42,450 nt of DNA from IMG/VR virus record IMGVR_UViG_3300027278_000019, positions 1 to 42,450 of that record, one strand, 5' to 3'. Of this stretch, positions 1 through 10,646 are shown one piece after another (positions within the stretch are counted from its first letter, which is position 1; each line of letters begins with the position of its first letter). The DNA comes from a virus (Duplodnaviria; Caudoviricetes). Under the pieces are notes generated by a model. It had not been told where the DNA came from. It saw only the letters and a program-made list of their open reading frames with translations, and made no database searches. The position numbers and the translations under genes are program-made.

Positions 1-722
1 AAGCAACTTCCGTCTGTGGGTGGGCGGTAACTGGTAAACCGTATATGCTGTCCGAAAGGATAGTCGCAGAGCCAGTCGGTGAGCGATAAGGAACTTGGCG
101 GTTCTACAGCGTATAGCCAAAACGGTAAACAGTAAAAACCAACTGGTAGTTACAGAGTCCGAGTCCGCAAACAAGGGCAATGTAGCATTACAAACGGTGA
201 AAGGGTAGGACCTGGAGTCGTGAAGTAAGGTTGAGTAGTCCGCAAGACGAAAGACAGTAGGTGTGTTGTATACTGTATCTAACAAGGTATGGTGCAACTG
301 GGACAGCACATCTTAGTAGGTTCGCAAATAGCTCAGCGGTAGAGCAATTCCCTTCTAAGGAATCGGCACAGGTTCAATCCCTGTTTTGATATAAAAGCGA
401 AAGACTGTCCCGGTACGTTGTGAAAGGTGCTTAACACCTAACACGCAAGTGAATTAGGTCTACGGAAACTCGCAAGGTGGATGTAGTTGTTCGGATAGCA
501 GACGTAACTTCTTAGCGGAAGTGAACAGCTCGCAAGGCTGGCGGAAGATAGAAGGACGAATAGCAACGTGCGACAGGAGAAAAGCCACTCCTCTAAAAAG
601 GCAGCACTGAGAGATACTAGTATAGCTGAAAGGCATATTAGTGGATAACGGATTAACTTTCCTCGCAAGGGATAAGGTACGGTCCAAAGGCTCTCATATA
701 AAGGTATAATCTCAGCCTGCAC
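1..722 (+). ncRNA. Large structured ncRNA, probably GOLLD RNA (5' end likely outside the window)
   Basis: No + strand ORF is listed over ~720 nt. Dense GNRA-capped hairpins (TCC-GAAA-GGA 51-60, CAC-GCAA-GTG 442-451, repeated C-GCAA-G), long-range pairing GGGACAG 300-306 / CTGTCCC 405-411, an embedded tRNA-like domain, and an intrinsic terminator directly after. Size, phage context and embedded tRNA fit GOLLD; family call from recognition, not a covariance search. Confidence 0.7.
322..391 (+). tRNA. tRNA-Arg(TCT)-like domain with defective acceptor stem, embedded in the ncRNA
   Basis: D arm GCTC-AGCGGTA-GAGC (331-345); anticodon arm ATTCC-CTTCTAA-GGAAT (347-363, anticodon TCT 354-356); T arm ACAGG-TTCAATC-CCTGT (368-384). 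Acceptor stem has only 4 contiguous pairs (CAAA/TTTG) and no CCA. Confidence 0.7.
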
Positions 723-729
723 TAAAATG

Positions 730-753
730 AACCCGCCAATGGCGGGTTTTTTT
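730..753 (+). terminator. Rho-independent terminator after the ncRNA
   Basis: AACCCGCC-AAT-GGCGGGTT followed by a T run. Confidence 0.85.
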
Positions 754-779
754 ATCTACATATATAATTTTTAAAAACG

Positions 780-787
780 CATAAATA
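780..787 (+). promoter_or_regulatory. T4-type late promoter (CATAAATA)
   Basis: NATAAATA motif upstream of the RBS; recurs before most structural genes. Confidence 0.65.
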
Positions 788-815
788 CAGATGTAAGCAA
801 ATTTCGGAGAAAGCT

Positions 816-1484
816 ATGGCGTCAGTAATCAATCCAGATAATGGTGAATTAAATATTTTAGGTAGTTTGAGTTTAACGAGCGACCTAAGTATAGGCGGTG
901 GACTAAGTTTAGCAGGAAAATTATCAATTGATGATACATCAGACATTGATCTAAATACTCCTACTTATGGCGATGGTGCATTAAACATTGCAGGCGGCGG
1001 CTATTTTGGCGGCAACCTATATGTTGGTGGTACACTTGTTGCCAATGGTGATGTTATTACACTTGGTAACGGTGGCGGCAGCTTAACACTAAACGCAAAT
1101 ATTAGCAGTGATATTTTACCGTCAACTACAGACACGTATAATGTCGGTTCAACGTCAGCTGAATGGAACTACGGATTTTTTAGAAATATTGTTTTAGATT
1201 CAGATGAAGAAACAGTTAATACAAGTGTTTCAACAATTCAAGGTGTTTCTTATATTGATGGATCAACTTCATCAACTGTTACTCTTGGTAACGGTGAATA
1301 CACGGGGCAAATAAAAGTAATAGTAGCGGTTGTTGATGTTTCATCATCACCAGTGCAGGTCACTCCGGATAACTTATTAGGATTTACTAGTATTATATTC
1401 AATGCGGTTGGGCAAACAGTTACACTTATGTACACATATGCAGGGTGGGTAATTTTATCAAATCGCGGCGCTAGCTTAGTTTAA
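816..1484 (+). CDS. Putative virion structural/fibre protein (Gly-rich beta repeats)
   Basis: 222-aa ORF, GGAG RBS, late promoter, GGGLSLAG/GGNLYVGG repeats typical of fibre shafts. Confidence 0.6.
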   Translation: MASVINPDNGELNILGSLSLTSDLSIGGGLSLAGKLSIDDTSDIDLNTPTYGDGALNIAGGGYFGGNLYVGGTLVANGDVITLGNGGGSLTLNANISSDILPSTTDTYNVGSTSAEWNYGFFRNIVLDSDEETVNTSVSTIQGVSYIDGSTSSTVTLGNGEYTGQIKVIVAVVDVSSSPVQVTPDNLLGFTSIIFNAVGQTVTLMYTYAGWVILSNRGASLV

Positions 1485-1489
1485 AAAAT

Positions 1490-1497
1490 AATAAATA
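1490..1497 (+). promoter_or_regulatory. Late promoter (AATAAATA)
   Basis: Late motif upstream of an AGGAGG RBS. Confidence 0.55.
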
Positions 1498-1521
1498 CGT
1501 AGAGTTTAGGAGGAATAATAG

Positions 1522-2439
1522 TTGGCAATAAACATAAACCATAGTAAAAATACAATTAAAACTGAAGACAAGCTAACTATTGACGCAGCAAATAATGTTT
1601 CTGTGACAAACAACCGTATAACTGATTTACAAGACCCTGTAGATGACCAAGACGCCGTAACAAAACGTTTCCTTGCACAGTATACGGATGGAGGTACATT
1701 TACGTATTCAAATATAACTCCTATGCCAGAAGAAGTAGGTGGCTATGAAGCTGGTGATACATTTAACAATGCTACATTACAACAGCTTTTTACAAATTTA
1801 CTTTACCCATATCAGTATCCAGCATTTTCTGCATTTTCACTTGCAGGGCAGACTACAACTATCGAAGTTGGCGATACAATAGCAGGCGGCACTAGAACAT
1901 TTGCATGGGGAACTACAAACAGTGTTAACGTAGAAACAAACTCAATCACTATTGAAGATGTTACAAACGGAATTGTTTATGGTAATAACTATGAAAATGA
2001 CGGCATTCAAAGTATTGACATTGGAAACTCAATTATTAAAACGTCTGCCCAGACGAACACATGGAAAATTTCAGCACGTAACACAAAAGGCCAGAATGTA
2101 TCCAAAAATTATTCAGTTAATTGGAGATGGAAAACTTATTATGGTACCAGTGATGCCGAATCACTAACCGAGATTGATATTAAATCTCTTGTTTCAAGCT
2201 CTTTGGATGCAAACTTTACTGGAAATAAATCTGTAGCAGCAAATGGATACAAATATTTTGCTTACCCTACTGTTTTTGGATTAAAGACAAATTTCCAAGA
2301 CTTGACAAGTGGGTTTGCGGTTGCCATGAATCCAGCAACAGTTGTCTCAATTACAAACGTATTCGGTATAAGTGCAGATTATTATGTACACCGAACAACT
2401 AACCCGATCGTTGGTTCATTAACGGTTGTGGTAGGTTGA
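1522..2439 (+). CDS. Putative virion structural/fibre-associated protein (TTG start)
   Basis: AGGAGG RBS 8 nt before TTG; 'ITDLQDPVDDQDAVTK' neck-like motif found in fibres and adhesins; beta-rich C-terminus. Confidence 0.65.
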   Translation: MAININHSKNTIKTEDKLTIDAANNVSVTNNRITDLQDPVDDQDAVTKRFLAQYTDGGTFTYSNITPMPEEVGGYEAGDTFNNATLQQLFTNLLYPYQYPAFSAFSLAGQTTTIEVGDTIAGGTRTFAWGTTNSVNVETNSITIEDVTNGIVYGNNYENDGIQSIDIGNSIIKTSAQTNTWKISARNTKGQNVSKNYSVNWRWKTYYGTSDAESLTEIDIKSLVSSSLDANFTGNKSVAANGYKYFAYPTVFGLKTNFQDLTSGFAVAMNPATVVSITNVFGISADYYVHRTTNPIVGSLTVVVG

Positions 2440-2450
2440 GGTAGCGTAAG

Positions 2451-3170
2451 ATGGCATTAATAACAGGCGCGGTAAACGTAACAGGCACAGTAGCACCAAC
2501 AGATACAAATGACGTATATGCAACACATGATAGCAAGTACGGAAAAGGTGGTTATCGTGAAGTAGCTGATATTACAGCCAGAGATTCTATTACAGTAGCA
2601 CGCCGTTCAGACGGTATGCTTGTATATGTACAATCAGAAGATAAAATATTCAAGTTAGAAAATGGATTAACTAACGACAACTGGGTTGAGTTTAAAGTAG
2701 ACGCAAGTAAAATTGTATACGATAACTCAAACAGTGTTTTAACTTCTGACAACATCCAAGACGCAGTTGATGAAATATCAGCAAGCGTTCATACTTTTAA
2801 AACTAAGTCAGTAACTTACGATTTAACAGGCGGGGCAACAGGATCAGTAACTGTAACCCAGGGTGATGACGTAAATATTGACGTTACAGTTGAATATGCT
2901 GAAAATAGTTTTTCAGTAGGTCCAACAGAAAAAACCGCAGTAGCACACTCTTTTGTTACTGGCAAATACAATATAGCAAAAATAACATCAATTGTTGAAG
3001 TAGGCATCGGCGATGACGATCTAAACAAGAGAAATGCTTTTGAGATATCCGAGTCGGGTGTGGTAAGCGCACCTGCAATGGAAAACGAAATGATAACACA
3101 GGATGGAGATCTTACTACTAAGAAGTATATAGATTATCTTATTATTGACTGTGGCAGCTATGATACTTAA
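2451..3170 (+). CDS. Putative virion structural/fibre-associated protein
   Basis: GAGGT RBS; 'NIQDAVDEI' fibre motif; ends IDCGSYDT. Confidence 0.6.
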   Translation: MALITGAVNVTGTVAPTDTNDVYATHDSKYGKGGYREVADITARDSITVARRSDGMLVYVQSEDKIFKLENGLTNDNWVEFKVDASKIVYDNSNSVLTSDNIQDAVDEISASVHTFKTKSVTYDLTGGATGSVTVTQGDDVNIDVTVEYAENSFSVGPTEKTAVAHSFVTGKYNIAKITSIVEVGIGDDDLNKRNAFEISESGVVSAPAMENEMITQDGDLTTKKYIDYLIIDCGSYDT

Positions 3171-5450: not shown

Positions 5451-8400
5451 ATGGCTTTTAGACAGATTAAGTCACCAGCCCTAGCCAATCAGGCAGTTAT
5501 CAATACAAAACTAGACGTTACAGCGGTTACAGGCCAAAACGCTAAATCATCAACAGCACTATCAGGTACATTCCTAATTGCTGACGTTGATACAGGTAGT
5601 CTAGCAAAGATCACTGCAGGTGCGCTAATAGGCTCATTTACAACAGACAATCTAGCAGAAGGTACAAATCTATACTTCACAGACGCACGTGCTCAGTTAG
5701 CAGTTGCAGCAGATATTGCTTCAGCAGTTTCAGCAGAAGCAGCACTACGTGAAGCAGCAGATGGTCTACTAGATACAGCAATCACAAACGAAGCATCAAC
5801 ACGTGCTTCAGCAGACACAACACTACAAGCAAACATTGACGCAGAAGCAACAGCACGTGCTGGCGCAGACACAGTTCTACGTACAGATTTCGAAGCAGCA
5901 GACGCAGATTTGCAAGCACAAATCAACAACATCATCAGCAACACTGATCCAGAAGCACTAGATTCACTATCAGAAATCGTTGCAGCTTACCAAGCAGCAG
6001 ACGATGCATTTACAGCAGCTATTACAGCGAACGCAACAGCTATCTCAACAGAGACAACAAACCGCGTTAACGCTGACAATGCTCTACAAGCAGCTATTGA
6101 TGGCGAAGCAGCAACACGTGCAGCAGATGATCTAACACTACAAGGCAACATTGATGCAGAAGCAGCAACACGCCTAGCAGCAGATAACGCACTAGCTGGT
6201 CGTGTAACAGCGAACGAAGGTGATATTGCTACACTAGAATCAGATCTAGCAGCAGAAGTAACACGTGCAACAGCAGCAGAAGGTGTACTAACATCAGGTC
6301 TAGCAGCAGAAGTAACACGTGCAACAACAGCAGAAGCAGCTAACGCTTCAAACATCGAAGCTGAAATCACAGCACGTGCGTCAGCTGACTCACTAATCCG
6401 TACAGACTTTGCGGCAGCAGATGCAACAAATCTACAGGCAGCAAAAGACTACAGTGATGCAGCAGACGTAGCGCAAACAACATCACTACAAGCATATGCA
6501 GATCAAGCAGAAGTAGATGCAGTTGCTACAGCAGAAGCATACACAGATGCTCGTGAAGTTGCAATTACTTCAACATACGAAGCATATGCAGATCAAGCAG
6601 AACTAGATGCAGTTGCTACAGCAGAAGCATACACAGATGCTCGTGAAGTTGCTATTACAACAGCATACCAAACATATGCAGATCAAGCAGAAGTTGATGC
6701 GAAAGCATATACAGACGCTCGTGAAGTTGCTATTACAACAGCATACGAAGCAGCAGATGCAGCACTACAATCACAGATTGACTTCATCGTTTCAAACACA
6801 GATGAAGCAGCTCTAGACTCACTAACTGAAATCGTTGCAGCTTTCCAAGCAGCAGACAGTTCACTAACAGGTCTAATCAATGCAAACACAACTGCAATCA
6901 ACAACGAAGCAGCAACACGTGAAGCAGCTGACTCAACACTAACATCAAACCTAGCTACAGAAGTATCAGCACGTCAAACAGCAGATACGACTCTACAAGC
7001 TAACATTAATGCAGAAGCAACAACTCGTGCAACAGCAGACGGTGTACTACAAACAAACATCGACGACGAAGAAACACGTGCGCTAGCAGCAGAAGGTGTT
7101 CTACAAGGTAATATCGACGCAGAAGCAGCAACACGTATTGCAGCAGACTCAGCACTAAGTGGCCGTGTAACTACACTAGAAGGTGATATGGACATTGTTG
7201 AATCAGGACTAGCATCTGAAATCACAGCACGTACAAATGCTGATACAACACTACAAGCAAACATCACAGCAGAAGCAGCGGCTCGTGTAGCAGCAGATCA
7301 AACACACACATTTGATATTGGAGCACTAGACACACGTGTAACAACAAACGAAACTGATATTGCTGATCTAGAAACAAATCTAGCACAAGAAGTATCAGAT
7401 CGTATTGCTGGTGACAACGCTCTAAGTTCAGCACTAACAACTGAAGCAACAACTCGTGCGGCAGCAGATGTTACTCTACAAAACAACATCGACGCTGAAG
7501 AAGCAGCACGTATTGCAGCAGATGATCTACTACAAACTGCTATCGATAACGAAGCAGTGGCACGTATTGCAGCAGACGGTGTTCTAACAACAAACGTTAC
7601 AAACAACACAACTGCAATTGCAACCAACACAGCAAACCTAACAACAGAGATTGCAAACCGCATCGCTGGTGATAGTGCGCTAGGCGGTCGTCTAACAACA
7701 GCAGAAAGCGATATTGATGCGCTTGAAGGCCGTATGGACACAGCAGAAGCAGACGTAGTTTCTCTAGAAGGTCGTATGGACACAGCAGAAGCAGACGTAG
7801 TTGCTCTAGAAGGTCGTATGGACACAGCAGAAGCAGACGTAGTTTCTCTAGAAGGTCGTATGGACACAGCAGAAGCTGACATCGTAGCAGTTGAAGGTCG
7901 TCTAGACGGTATTGATACAGATCTAGCAGCAGAAACAGCGGCACGTATTGCTGGTGATTCAGCAACACTAGCTTCAGCAAATACATACACAGATACAGCG
8001 ATCACAAACCTAGTTGATGGTGCAGACACAGCACTAGATACACTAAAAGAGATCGGTGATGCATTTGCCGCGGCAGACTCAAACCTACAAACTCTAATCA
8101 CAAACAACAGTACACGCCTAACAGCGGTTGAAGGTGAAGTAGACGTTCTACAAAGTGAGATGGATGCAGCAGAAGGTCGTTTAACTGTAAACGAAGGTGA
8201 GATTGATACACTACAATCAGACCTAACAGCAGAAACAGCGGCACGTATTGCAGCAGACACAGCACTACAAACAGCACTACAAGCATATGCAGACCTAGCA
8301 GAAACAGATGCTAACACATATGCAGACGCTGAAATTGCAGCGGCAGTTGCAGCACTAGAAGCAGCAGATACAGCACTAGACGGTCGTGTAACAACACTAG

Positions 8401-10646
8401 AAGGTGAAATGGATACAGCGCAGGCTGATATTCTAACAAATGCTGGTGACATTGTAGCACTAGACGTTCGCGTAACAGCAAACGAAGGTGATATTGCTAC
8501 AAACGCTAGTGACATTACAGCACTAGACGGTCGTGTAACAGTAAACGAAGGTGACATTGCTCAACTAGAACTAGACCTAGCAGCAGAAGTAACACGTGCT
8601 CAAACAGCAGAAGCAGCAAACGCAACAGCTATTGCTAACGAAGTTACAGCACGTCAAGCAGCTATTGATGCAGAGCACCAGCACCACATTGACGGTGACG
8701 CAGCTACACTAACAAGTGCAAATGCTTACACAGATACACGTGAGACAGCTATTACAGCGGCTTACGAAGCATATGCAGATCAAGCAGAAGTTGATGCAAA
8801 AGCATACACAGACGCTCGTGAAGTTGTAATTACTTCAGCATACGAAGCAGCTGATACTCTACTAAACACTGCGATTACTAACGAAGCAAGCACACGTGCA
8901 ACAGCAGATACAAACCTACAGAATACTATCGACGCTGAAGTAACACGTGCTCAAGCAGCAGAAGCAGCAAACGCAGCGGCAGCGGCATCTAACCTACTAG
9001 AAATCACTGCAACACAAGCGGCAGCTGGTCTAAACACAGATGGTACATTCAACGCATATGTTGATACCAACTTCATTGACACTGCTACAACACTACGTGG
9101 TGCAGACATTCTACTAGACGCAGCAATCAAATCTGAAGAAACACGTGCTCTAGCAGCAGAAGGTGCTAACGCAACAGCTATTTCAAACGAAGTAACTCGC
9201 GCAACAGCAGTAGAAGCAGCAAACGCAGCAGCTATTACAGCAGAAGCAAGTACACGTGCAGCAGCAGACGTTGCACTAGGCGATAACATCCAAACTGTAT
9301 CGGACACCCTAGCACAAGAGCTACTAGACCGTGCAGCAGCAGATAGTAACCTACAATCACAGATCGACTTCATCGTGTCAAACACAGATGCGGCAGCACT
9401 AGATTCTCTAACAGAGATCGTTGCAGCATTCCAGACAGCTGATGGTGATCTACTAACAACTGTAACAGCTAACACAACAGCTATTTCAACTGAAGAAGCA
9501 GCTCGTATTTCAGCAGACAATGCTCTAACTACAGCTCTAGGCGCAGAAGAAACAGCACGTATTAGTGGTGACGCAACACTACAGTCAAACCTAGATACTG
9601 AAGTTGCAGCACTAGAAGCAGCAGACGGCGTTCTACAAACAAACATCGACGGCAAAGTTGCTAAGTCAGGCGACACAATGAGTGGCGACCTAGCTATGGG
9701 CGGTAACAAAGTAACTGGTCTAGCACAGCCATCAGCTGGTGCAGATGCAGTTAACCTAGATTACCTAAACACAGCACTATCAGCTTACGATCTAGATAAC
9801 TTCACTACAACAGATCTAGCAGAAGGTGACAACCTATACTACACAGACGCTCGCGTTCGTGCAGCGGTTTCAGCTTCAGGCGATTTAAGTTACGATTCAG
9901 AAACTGGTGTATTCAGTGTAGATACTTCAAAGGCACTACTAGATCTAACAGACTACGTAGGTACAGAGACAGACTACACAGCAATTGAAGGCTATGTTCT
10001 AGCTGTTAAGTCAGACGGTTCAGGCGTTGAACTAGTTGATCCAGCATCACTATCATTCGCACAATCAAACCGCCAGACAATCAACGGTGACGGTGCTCAG
10101 ACAACATTCGCACTAAACTTCTACGCAACTATTTCTAACGCAATGGTATTCGTAGGCGGTGTTATCCAGGACCCTGTAACACACTACTCACTAGATAGTG
10201 AAGCACAGACAATCACATTCGTTGAAGCAATCCCAACTGGTACACAAGCAGTTGTAGTTGCTAACGCAGTTGGTAACACACCATACATTGACAATGGTTC
10301 AATTACAAGTGAAAAACTAGCATCAGACGTTAAAACTTTCATTGCAGGTGGTAACGTAACAGCTGGTACTTCAGGTTCAGTAGTTGACACATTCAGTGGT
10401 GCAACATACCGCTCAGCTAAGTTCGTAATCCAAGTATCATATGGTTCAGAGTACGAAACACGCGAAGCACTAGTTGTACACAATGGTACTTCAGCGTTCA
10501 TTACAGAATACGCAATCGTTTACACAGGCGCAGGTCTGCTAGGTGATGCAAGTGTTCAAATGAACGGTACAGATGTTGAACTAGTTTATACAGCTAACAA
10601 CGCAGGTACAACAGTAAAAGTTATCGGTACTTACATCGAAGCATAA
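5451..10646 (+). CDS. Giant Ala/Thr/Asp/Glu-rich coiled-coil fibre protein (1731 aa)
   Basis: GGAG RBS; long run of E..R..AD and YTD/YAD coiled-coil repeats, four ALD(S/T)L.EI motifs, two EG.NLY(F/Y)TDAR motifs, C-terminal beta domains. Confidence 0.8.
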   Translation: MAFRQIKSPALANQAVINTKLDVTAVTGQNAKSSTALSGTFLIADVDTGSLAKITAGALIGSFTTDNLAEGTNLYFTDARAQLAVAADIASAVSAEAALREAADGLLDTAITNEASTRASADTTLQANIDAEATARAGADTVLRTDFEAADADLQAQINNIISNTDPEALDSLSEIVAAYQAADDAFTAAITANATAISTETTNRVNADNALQAAIDGEAATRAADDLTLQGNIDAEAATRLAADNALAGRVTANEGDIATLESDLAAEVTRATAAEGVLTSGLAAEVTRATTAEAANASNIEAEITARASADSLIRTDFAAADATNLQAAKDYSDAADVAQTTSLQAYADQAEVDAVATAEAYTDAREVAITSTYEAYADQAELDAVATAEAYTDAREVAITTAYQTYADQAEVDAKAYTDAREVAITTAYEAADAALQSQIDFIVSNTDEAALDSLTEIVAAFQAADSSLTGLINANTTAINNEAATREAADSTLTSNLATEVSARQTADTTLQANINAEATTRATADGVLQTNIDDEETRALAAEGVLQGNIDAEAATRIAADSALSGRVTTLEGDMDIVESGLASEITARTNADTTLQANITAEAAARVAADQTHTFDIGALDTRVTTNETDIADLETNLAQEVSDRIAGDNALSSALTTEATTRAAADVTLQNNIDAEEAARIAADDLLQTAIDNEAVARIAADGVLTTNVTNNTTAIATNTANLTTEIANRIAGDSALGGRLTTAESDIDALEGRMDTAEADVVSLEGRMDTAEADVVALEGRMDTAEADVVSLEGRMDTAEADIVAVEGRLDGIDTDLAAETAARIAGDSATLASANTYTDTAITNLVDGADTALDTLKEIGDAFAAADSNLQTLITNNSTRLTAVEGEVDVLQSEMDAAEGRLTVNEGEIDTLQSDLTAETAARIAADTALQTALQAYADLAETDANTYADAEIAAAVAALEAADTALDGRVTTLEGEMDTAQADILTNAGDIVALDVRVTANEGDIATNASDITALDGRVTVNEGDIAQLELDLAAEVTRAQTAEAANATAIANEVTARQAAIDAEHQHHIDGDAATLTSANAYTDTRETAITAAYEAYADQAEVDAKAYTDAREVVITSAYEAADTLLNTAITNEASTRATADTNLQNTIDAEVTRAQAAEAANAAAAASNLLEITATQAAAGLNTDGTFNAYVDTNFIDTATTLRGADILLDAAIKSEETRALAAEGANATAISNEVTRATAVEAANAAAITAEASTRAAADVALGDNIQTVSDTLAQELLDRAAADSNLQSQIDFIVSNTDAAALDSLTEIVAAFQTADGDLLTTVTANTTAISTEEAARISADNALTTALGAEETARISGDATLQSNLDTEVAALEAADGVLQTNIDGKVAKSGDTMSGDLAMGGNKVTGLAQPSAGADAVNLDYLNTALSAYDLDNFTTTDLAEGDNLYYTDARVRAAVSASGDLSYDSETGVFSVDTSKALLDLTDYVGTETDYTAIEGYVLAVKSDGSGVELVDPASLSFAQSNRQTINGDGAQTTFALNFYATISNAMVFVGGVIQDPVTHYSLDSEAQTITFVEAIPTGTQAVVVANAVGNTPYIDNGSITSEKLASDVKTFIAGGNVTAGTSGSVVDTFSGATYRSAKFVIQVSYGSEYETREALVVHNGTSAFITEYAIVYTGAGLLGDASVQMNGTDVELVYTANNAGTTVKVIGTYIEA
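6491..6750 (+). repeat. 90-bp (30-aa) intragenic tandem repeat
   Basis: AGCATATGCAGATCAAGCAGAA at 6491 and 6581, with a third shortened copy near 6671. Confidence 0.8.
7725..7892 (+). repeat. Four near-identical 42-bp (14-aa) tandem repeats
   Basis: GAAGG(T/C)CGTATGGACACAGCAGAAGC... at 7725, 7767, 7809 and 7851 (EGRMDTAEADVV(S/A)L). Confidence 0.9.

Follow-up and report, generated by a model that had tools for sequence, protein, structure and literature searches.

A shortened tRNA-like element within the J13/15 linker of phage GOLLD, possibly an anticodon-arm bait

GOLLD RNAs, about 800 nt long and variable in their 5' domain, assemble into large multimeric cages (PMC12990946; PMC12286853). 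No function is known for these cages, and storage of tRNAs is what has been proposed in print. tRNAs located in the J13/15 linker of GOLLD have been described, among which a Mycolicibacterium tRNA-Phe, together with the idea of 'inhibited storage' (PMC12990946), and 'covalently linked tRNAs' were reported for GOLLD (PMC12286853). In cryo-EM this variable linker was found to be disordered, and in the env-38 cage it points to the interior; the same paper cites a ribosome pull-down of GOLLD (PMC12286853). The accessible supplements of this cage study (10.1101/2024.12.08.627333 / PMC12286853) do not mention tRNA or acceptor. The tRNA-in-GOLLD arrangement itself is thus already published, and what is newer here is a shortened, exchanged and fold-maintained form of it. 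The literature searched yielded no account of an exchangeable GOLLD insert with a shortened acceptor; the original GOLLD discovery and 2025 structure papers may hold one.

The GOLLD RNA of the phage fragment and its tRNA-like element

The whole stretch of DNA considered here, the window, is virus record IMGVR_UViG_3300027278_000019 (Caudoviricetes, 42,450 nt), and all positions refer to it. Apart from the RNA it is filled by tail fibre, sheath and terminase genes, which mark it as part of the genome of a large myovirus; PHROG matches were obtained for 14 of the 18 proteins scanned. These genes, and the fact that G000 is a virus record, place the RNA in a phage. Among the tail fibre genes lies an alanine-rich repetitive ORF of 1731 aa (5451-10646) with strongly CGT-biased Arg codons. 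The ncRNA that carries the tRNA-like element is GOLLD: Rfam RF02032 matched positions 258-718 (model 1-416) with 192.9 bits, at a gathering cut-off of 150. The features are as follows.

1-721, plus strand: GOLLD RNA; RF02032 matches its 3' domain (258-718), and its 5' end falls before position 1
300-411, plus strand: GOLLD pseudoknot helix, GGGACAG (300-306) / CTGTCCC (405-411), bracketing the linker
321-401, plus strand: anchor helix, TTCG(C) 321-325 / (G)CGAA 397-401, taking up the leader and the place of acceptor positions 1-3
325-388, plus strand: shortened acceptor stem, CAAA (325-328) / TTTG (385-388), then an A/T-rich tail (389-396) without CCA
329-346, plus strand: U8 and D arm, GCTC/GAGC (331-345), with G18 G19 (338-339), U20 (340) and Levitt G15 (336)
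347-363, plus strand: anticodon arm, ATTCC/GGAAT, loop CTTCTAA (352-358), TCT at 354-356
364-384, plus strand: variable loop, including Levitt C48 (367), followed by the T arm, ACAGG/CCTGT (368-384)
729-749, plus strand: intrinsic terminator-like hairpin 3' of the GOLLD end; RNA contigs end at 716-721

A promoter scan of positions 1-900 found none. The initial annotation had seen the cloverleaf as a subdomain inside the GGGACAG/CTGTCCC helix. This helix indeed brackets the linker, but it crosses the GOLLD helix 259-265/307-313 of the Rfam alignment and is a pseudoknot rather than a simple enclosing stem. Relatives harbour differing but complementary versions of it, although extraction of linkers demanded pairing of this type and the count of the helix among them is not independent.

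The element occupies the variable J13/15 linker of GOLLD. The D, anticodon and T arms that the initial annotation had seen are all present (331-345, 347-363 and 368-384). ARAGORN called a tRNA-Arg(tct) at 322-392, the sole tRNA in the stretch, and the Rfam tRNA model matched with 56.8 bits (E 6.5e-11); tRNA programs fill positions 1-3 with borrowed leader bases. The acceptor had been described as broken. CAAA/TTTG are indeed the only contiguous pairs and CCA is absent, but in the 7-bp register five of the seven positions can pair, U322-A391 included, with mismatches only at 2:71 and 3:70. 'Shortened by deletion and conserved' describes the acceptor better. The pairing of TTCGC with GCGAA proposed to anchor the cloverleaf is supported by covariation of this helix in relatives (see below). 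C325, claimed by both helices, can join only one, leaving a split between acceptor and anchor of 4+4 or 3+5 bp. Both folds score -12.3 to -13.1 kcal/mol, compared with a single-sequence minimum of -20.3 that omits the acceptor remnant. Single-sequence folding recovered the anchor helix, D arm and T arm but not this remnant, and folding of 322-393 gave no cloverleaf (z -0.79) and is not counted as support. The case for the cloverleaf is made by covariation and not by folding energy.

Cloverleaf, acceptor and transcripts in relatives

Pattern scans and BLAST yielded 370 sequences including the stretch itself; one of these (L320) is probably the stretch's own contig and holds no independent information. 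Linkers were obtained from 245 sequences, 110 of them distinct, while 125 of the 370 loci gave no linker; of 127 left-over loci 34 had a core match, several with further cassettes outside the counts given here. All 18 loci checked pass the GOLLD cut-off, including those of the cultured phages phiCbK, DSS3_MAL1, DSS3P8, Cp1R7A-A1 and Phosso. Cloverleaves were parsed from 94 of the 110 distinct linkers, by a parser that required paired D, anticodon and T stems, U8, the D-loop GG and the T-loop TTC, features which are therefore not independent evidence. The other 16 were sorted by eye into 4 slightly deviant cloverleaves, 10 reduced two-hairpin forms and 2 that are neither, these 2 being the only linkers of the 110 without a recognisable hairpin set. 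The 15:48 tertiary pair, not required by the parser, is present in 91 of the 94 (AU 51, GC 21, UA 19). Pair types within the arms vary, for example at 12:23 (UA 52, AU 26, CG 15) and 30:40 (GC 54, CG 27, UA 13). RNAalifold on 40 hand-picked linkers returned the three arms and, unprompted, the anchor helix, with two-sided changes in 14 of 18 pairs. It missed the acceptor remnant, probably owing to a gap column, and the remnant rests on register-based counts.

Those counts separate the two halves of the acceptor. The inner pairs 4:69 to 7:66 are kept in 93, 88, 89 and 94 of the 94 cloverleaf linkers, the outer pairs 1:72 to 3:70 in 49, 18 and 62, and CCA is present in 10. Four or five contiguous acceptor pairs without CCA were found in 75 of the 94; in this phage there are four. 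Free tRNAs neighbouring the same loci are different: a full set of seven acceptor pairs occurs in 53 of 74 free tRNAs versus 2 of 78 embedded elements, and CCA in 67 of 74 versus 7 of 78. A graded series runs from 6-7 bp with CCA (L017, L099, L298, L364) via a decayed CCA (L047, L056) to 4-5 bp. The series is unrooted; read in this direction, it would represent shortening of the acceptor by deletion. Anchor helix types among the 110 linkers are TCGC/GCGA (83), TTGC/GCAA (9), crossed (1) and neither 5' word (17). On the core tree three switches of type are needed, and the covariation of the anchor helix is real but rests on few events. Since the inner four pairs hold, the outer three and CCA are lost and the anchor helix covaries, the acceptor appears to have been shortened and not randomly decayed.

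That the insert is merely a tRNA pseudogene in decay, tolerated by its linker, would suit a linker that is variable and disordered in cryo-EM (PMC12286853), as would the existence of GOLLDs without a tRNA-like insert, which are common (e.g. L003 and L115). Random decay of the arms, named in the initial annotation as the mark of a pseudogene, was looked for in the relatives and not seen. The three arms show compensatory changes, the 15:48 pair and the acceptor remnant are maintained, and loss is confined to the outer acceptor and CCA. The pseudogene reading thus appears largely refuted and is very improbable. The short acceptor, the missing CCA and the anchor helix in relatives rather support the earlier suggestion of a mimic that would not be aminoacylated, and we consider it highly probable that the element is a folded, non-chargeable tRNA mimic retained in GOLLD.

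The same annotation had also considered a processing handle. At such a handle RNase P or RNase Z would cut at a distance set by the elbow and separate the 5' and 3' domains of GOLLD or open the cage. The elbow is intact, and RNase P, RNase Z and the CCA enzyme measure from the tRNA elbow, which RNase P and RNase Z clamp (PMC4919913). However, such a handle calls for a full-length stack and a free leader, while here the stack of acceptor and T stem has 9 bp and the leader is base-paired, and leader pairing hinders and slows RNase P (PMC9433436). By this ruler mechanism the short stack and the leader bound in the anchor helix would make the element a poor substrate for RNase P, RNase Z and CCA enzyme, and GOLLD is for that reason predicted to stay uncut. 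Furthermore, cassettes without an elbow occupy the same slot. Part of positions 1-780 is contained in 24 metatranscriptome runs, 8 of which hold at least half of the words. In eight of the 24, the contigs of which were placed on the window, single contigs span position 1 or 150 to 716-721 in X1, X2, X3, X4 and X6, and 1-415 in X5, so that contigs in six of the eight runs (X1 to X6) bridge both borders of the element without a break. In X10 and X11 window-like pieces do break at the element borders, but the loose ends read as other cassettes, and the sole joint of known content is a replacement, not a cut-out. These contigs are a weak hint at an intact transcript, being blind to small excised RNAs, strand and level. 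Five contigs end within 716-721, which is the Rfam end and lies before the terminator; contigs from RNA libraries that end at 717-721 measure 801-856 nt, some reaching past the first base of the stretch, and do not fix transcript ends. Little or no RNA depth was seen outside GOLLD; the runs had been selected with this stretch, and depth is for that reason no measure of level. A processing handle is disfavoured and, all told, unlikely.

Storage of a real tRNA-Arg(UCU) would require excision, repair of positions 1-3 (Thg1-like) and addition of CCA, in keeping with the 'inhibited storage' proposal (PMC12990946). The loop of this phage is canonical, ARAGORN and Rfam call a tRNA, 10 of the 94 relatives retain CCA, and two of five related genomes harbour a PolyA_pol/CCA-family gene. 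In none of these five phage genomes, however, was Thg1 found, and positions 70-72, the template for such repair, are the most variable acceptor positions. Undecodable loops are common among the relatives. In the tRNA-cluster regions covered, each of the five genomes (171-382 kb) has a complete, CCA-encoding tRNA-Arg(UCU), and CCA is encoded in 162 of their 171 free tRNAs. Where the embedded loop is canonical (three of the five genomes), a free full tRNA shares the identical 7-base loop; the other two embed 8-base loops. Decoding therefore does not depend on the insert, and a role in reading AGA was rejected on the presence of free tRNA-Arg(UCU) in all five. The accompanying remark on codons is accurate: AGA is commoner in several low-GC ORFs, whereas CGT dominates overall (83 AGA and 250 CGT of 454 Arg codons in 32 ORFs). 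A20 is a determinant for ArgRS. U20 is present in 92 of the 94 cloverleaf linkers, this phage's included. The pseudo-tRNA of a mycobacterial GOLLD gave no detected product (PMC6582537). Storage is thus even less likely than a processing handle as an account of this element, though it may apply to the CCA-bearing minority of cassettes. Judged on sequence, a functional tRNA-Arg(UCU) is matched in its arms and tertiary core, and departed from in the 7-bp acceptor, the CCA and a kept anticodon; the RNA of this phage is accordingly classed as a member of GOLLD and not of the functional tRNAs.

Some related jumbo phages have free tRNAs with a CUA anticodon (amber suppressor-like) and CCA, ~310 nt 3' of GOLLD in L019, L021 and L029 and also in G002 and G004; these tRNAs hint at recoding or read-through of TAG.

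Turnover of cassettes and anticodon loops

The initial annotation had raised the possibility that the slot holds different tRNAs in homologous RNAs, and different tRNA-like cassettes were indeed found. Among 27 pairs whose two flanks each show 95% identity or more, 15 have linkers below 85% identity. A test on pairs with identical bodies is biased by the deduplication of linkers and was repeated on whole GOLLD stretches (see below). The core tree implies 44 changes of cassette family, compared with a minimum of 5 and a mean of 67 after shuffling, and the family of this phage requires 15 changes for 16 members. An AU test rejected a single clade for this family (p 6e-72) and for the reduced family (p 2e-6), with cassette groups that were defined after sight of a first tree. 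By these results cassettes pass between GOLLD cores that are almost the same. It is unlikely that mis-assembly explains this, as full and reduced forms both occur in isolates and RNA contigs put other cassettes beside window-like flanks.

The reduced linkers (L037, L048, L053, L058, L080, L113, L271, L299, L332 and L347; 10 of 110) lack T arm and acceptor. They consist of the anchor helix, mostly kept, one hairpin and then an anticodon-like hairpin, which in 9 of the 10 is a perfect 5-bp stem with a 7-base loop, NTTNGGW. Such an anticodon-like hairpin occurs in 13 of the 16 unparsed linkers, compared with 1.4 expected by shuffling. A search for further reduced cassettes returned only an already known one. 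In L001 and L014 the linker, ~380 nt 5' of the GOLLD 3' end, shows by eye a D-like arm, an anticodon-like arm and a degenerate T arm; it may be a step on the way to the reduced form. Matches resembling manA RNA were observed 5' of GOLLD at L080:78-284 (55.5 bits, just above the cut-off) and, on the minus strand, at L037:89-292 (43.9 bits, below it).

GOLLD is unannotated in the cultured phages phiCbK (L112:1545-2031), DSS3_MAL1 (L110:1525-1988), Cp1R7A-A1 (L247:831-1293), Phosso (L114:828-1296) and DSS3P8 (L113:641-1074). Of the two Roseobacter phages, DSS3_MAL1 carries a full and DSS3P8 a reduced cassette. The inserts, where annotated in cultured phages, are named tRNA-Gly, -Lys, -Arg or -Leu; these annotations are likely wrong and would distort counts of phage tRNAs. 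Adjoining GOLLD, tmRNA genes were seen at L110:2046-2480 and L113:1245-1564 (both permuted, of the alphaproteobacterial type), L112:648-1087 (minus strand) and L022:1599-2014.

The anticodon loop is the part of the element that varies and is probably exposed. Among the 94 cloverleaf linkers 45 loop sequences occur, on an anticodon stem that covaries, with 7 bases in 82, 8 in 11 and 6 in 1; canonical loops number 55 and non-canonical ones 39. The 82 seven-base loops hold 18 anticodons, led by CUU (16), UAG (16), UCU (14) and UGA (9). The weight that the initial annotation gave to Arg(UCU) is not borne out by this variety or by the free tRNA-Arg(UCU) of the related genomes, and the Arg identity of the element seems incidental. 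Three loops turn up on more than one kind of body: CTCTTAA with 8 changes, CTTCTAA with 6 and TTTAGGN with 9. Loops with G at position 33, which would break the U-turn, were noted in L022, L110, L248 and L112, from two separate alphaproteobacterial phage groups.

Between the Caulobacter phages phiCbK and Swift, Karma and Magneto the GOLLD 3' domains are ~99% identical and differ mainly in the anticodon loop; over ~1070 positions there are 14-17 differences, of which the loop has three. In the 12 closest links of whole GOLLD stretches the loop shows 15 differences over 86 positions versus 27 over 5860 elsewhere, an excess that amounts to three independent loop changes, with none in 7 of the 12 links, which were picked for few non-loop differences. 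In the deep tree 31, 36 and 30 changes fall on loop positions 32, 35 and 36, respectively, and 32 on T-loop position 59, so that the loop is about as fast there as a free position, and drift could explain its rates.

Such rates, equal to those of a free position, would also suit a mimic that engages another reader of tRNA shape (ribosome, synthetase, modification enzyme or the cage), its loop being a liability that escapes nucleases or drifts. The elbow and the 15:48 pair are the most conserved features, G33, A32 and 8-base loops recur, a ribosome pull-down of GOLLD is cited (PMC12286853), and mutation of the anticodon loop was proposed as an escape for phage tRNAs (PMC10264068). On the other hand, reduced cassettes discard the elbow and retain the anticodon-like hairpin, the commonest loops are exact copies of loops of working phage tRNAs, and a pure liability could shrink the loop, while 93 of the 94 loops have 7 or 8 bases. 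This reading is a serious possibility, and a bait is ranked ahead of it.

Possible function and comparison with known systems

Our best explanation is that the short-acceptor cloverleaf, likely left uncut and uncharged within GOLLD, may serve as an exchangeable anticodon-arm bait for tRNA-targeting defence proteins, with a probability of roughly 0.4 for this reading as a whole. Nucleases that act on the anticodon arm are common defence effectors and function in phage defence (PMC12409363; PMC13056530; PMC10264068), and a kept tRNA body combined with a traded loop and cassette is a pattern that looks typical of a host-facing surface; on these two grounds a bait is the best guess for the function, tentatively held. 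With one mimic per GOLLD chain, an assembled cage would carry many. The putative partner, an anticodon nuclease or a similar tRNA-binding defence factor, might be bound or kept busy, by which real phage tRNAs with the same loop could be spared, and change of host might drive turnover of loop and cassette. The broader idea that GOLLD is a multivalent RNA display scaffold, with the linker as an exchangeable anti-defence cassette soaking up or caging host anticodon nucleases, is doubtful. Confidence in the bait is modest in view of the interior position of the linker and a partner that is putative: a linker facing inwards, as in the env-38 cage, would conceal the bait, except where the cage opens or is formed late. 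Furthermore, the 39 non-canonical loops suit escape from cleavage as well as a bait.

Storage of working tRNAs cannot account for most inserts of this clade, whose fold is nevertheless kept while the anticodon arm turns over. For this clade the storage idea is thereby weakened, and the search is directed to a partner that reads anticodon arms, for which the cultured Caulobacter and Roseobacter phages are a ready system to test GOLLD function. Display by GOLLD, if true, would amount to an anti-defence mimic made of RNA alone, comparable to those made of protein, and would be the first function for GOLLD cages.

Rfam gave no match to tmRNA, YrlA or mascRNA in positions 1-3000 of the window. The tRNA elbow built into another RNA is a property that the GOLLD mimic shares with these three RNAs. 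In tmRNA and in the bacterial Y RNA (YrlA) the acceptor and T side is kept and a normal anticodon arm is missing. In the GOLLD mimic it is the acceptor that is trimmed, and the anticodon arm is retained. With phage tRNAs directed against anticodon nucleases, such as the tRNA-Lys of T5 against PARIS AriB (PMC12409363; PMC10264068), the common point is the anticodon arm as a changing surface of conflict; those tRNAs, however, are complete and rescue translation by resisting cleavage, whereas the GOLLD mimic is predicted not to translate. The closest described systems are the GOLLD tRNAs themselves, which agree with this locus in RNA family, linker slot and coding by phages. The published insert is treated as a tRNA, possibly stored (PMC12990946; PMC12286853), while the inserts described here mostly have an acceptor of 4-5 bp, no CCA, an anchor helix and a variable loop, with reduced forms and exchange. 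The GOLLD of Mycobacterium aubagnense similarly holds a defective tRNA, for which no product was detected; it was called a pseudogene (PMC6582537), whereas covariation in the present clade shows that the fold is maintained.
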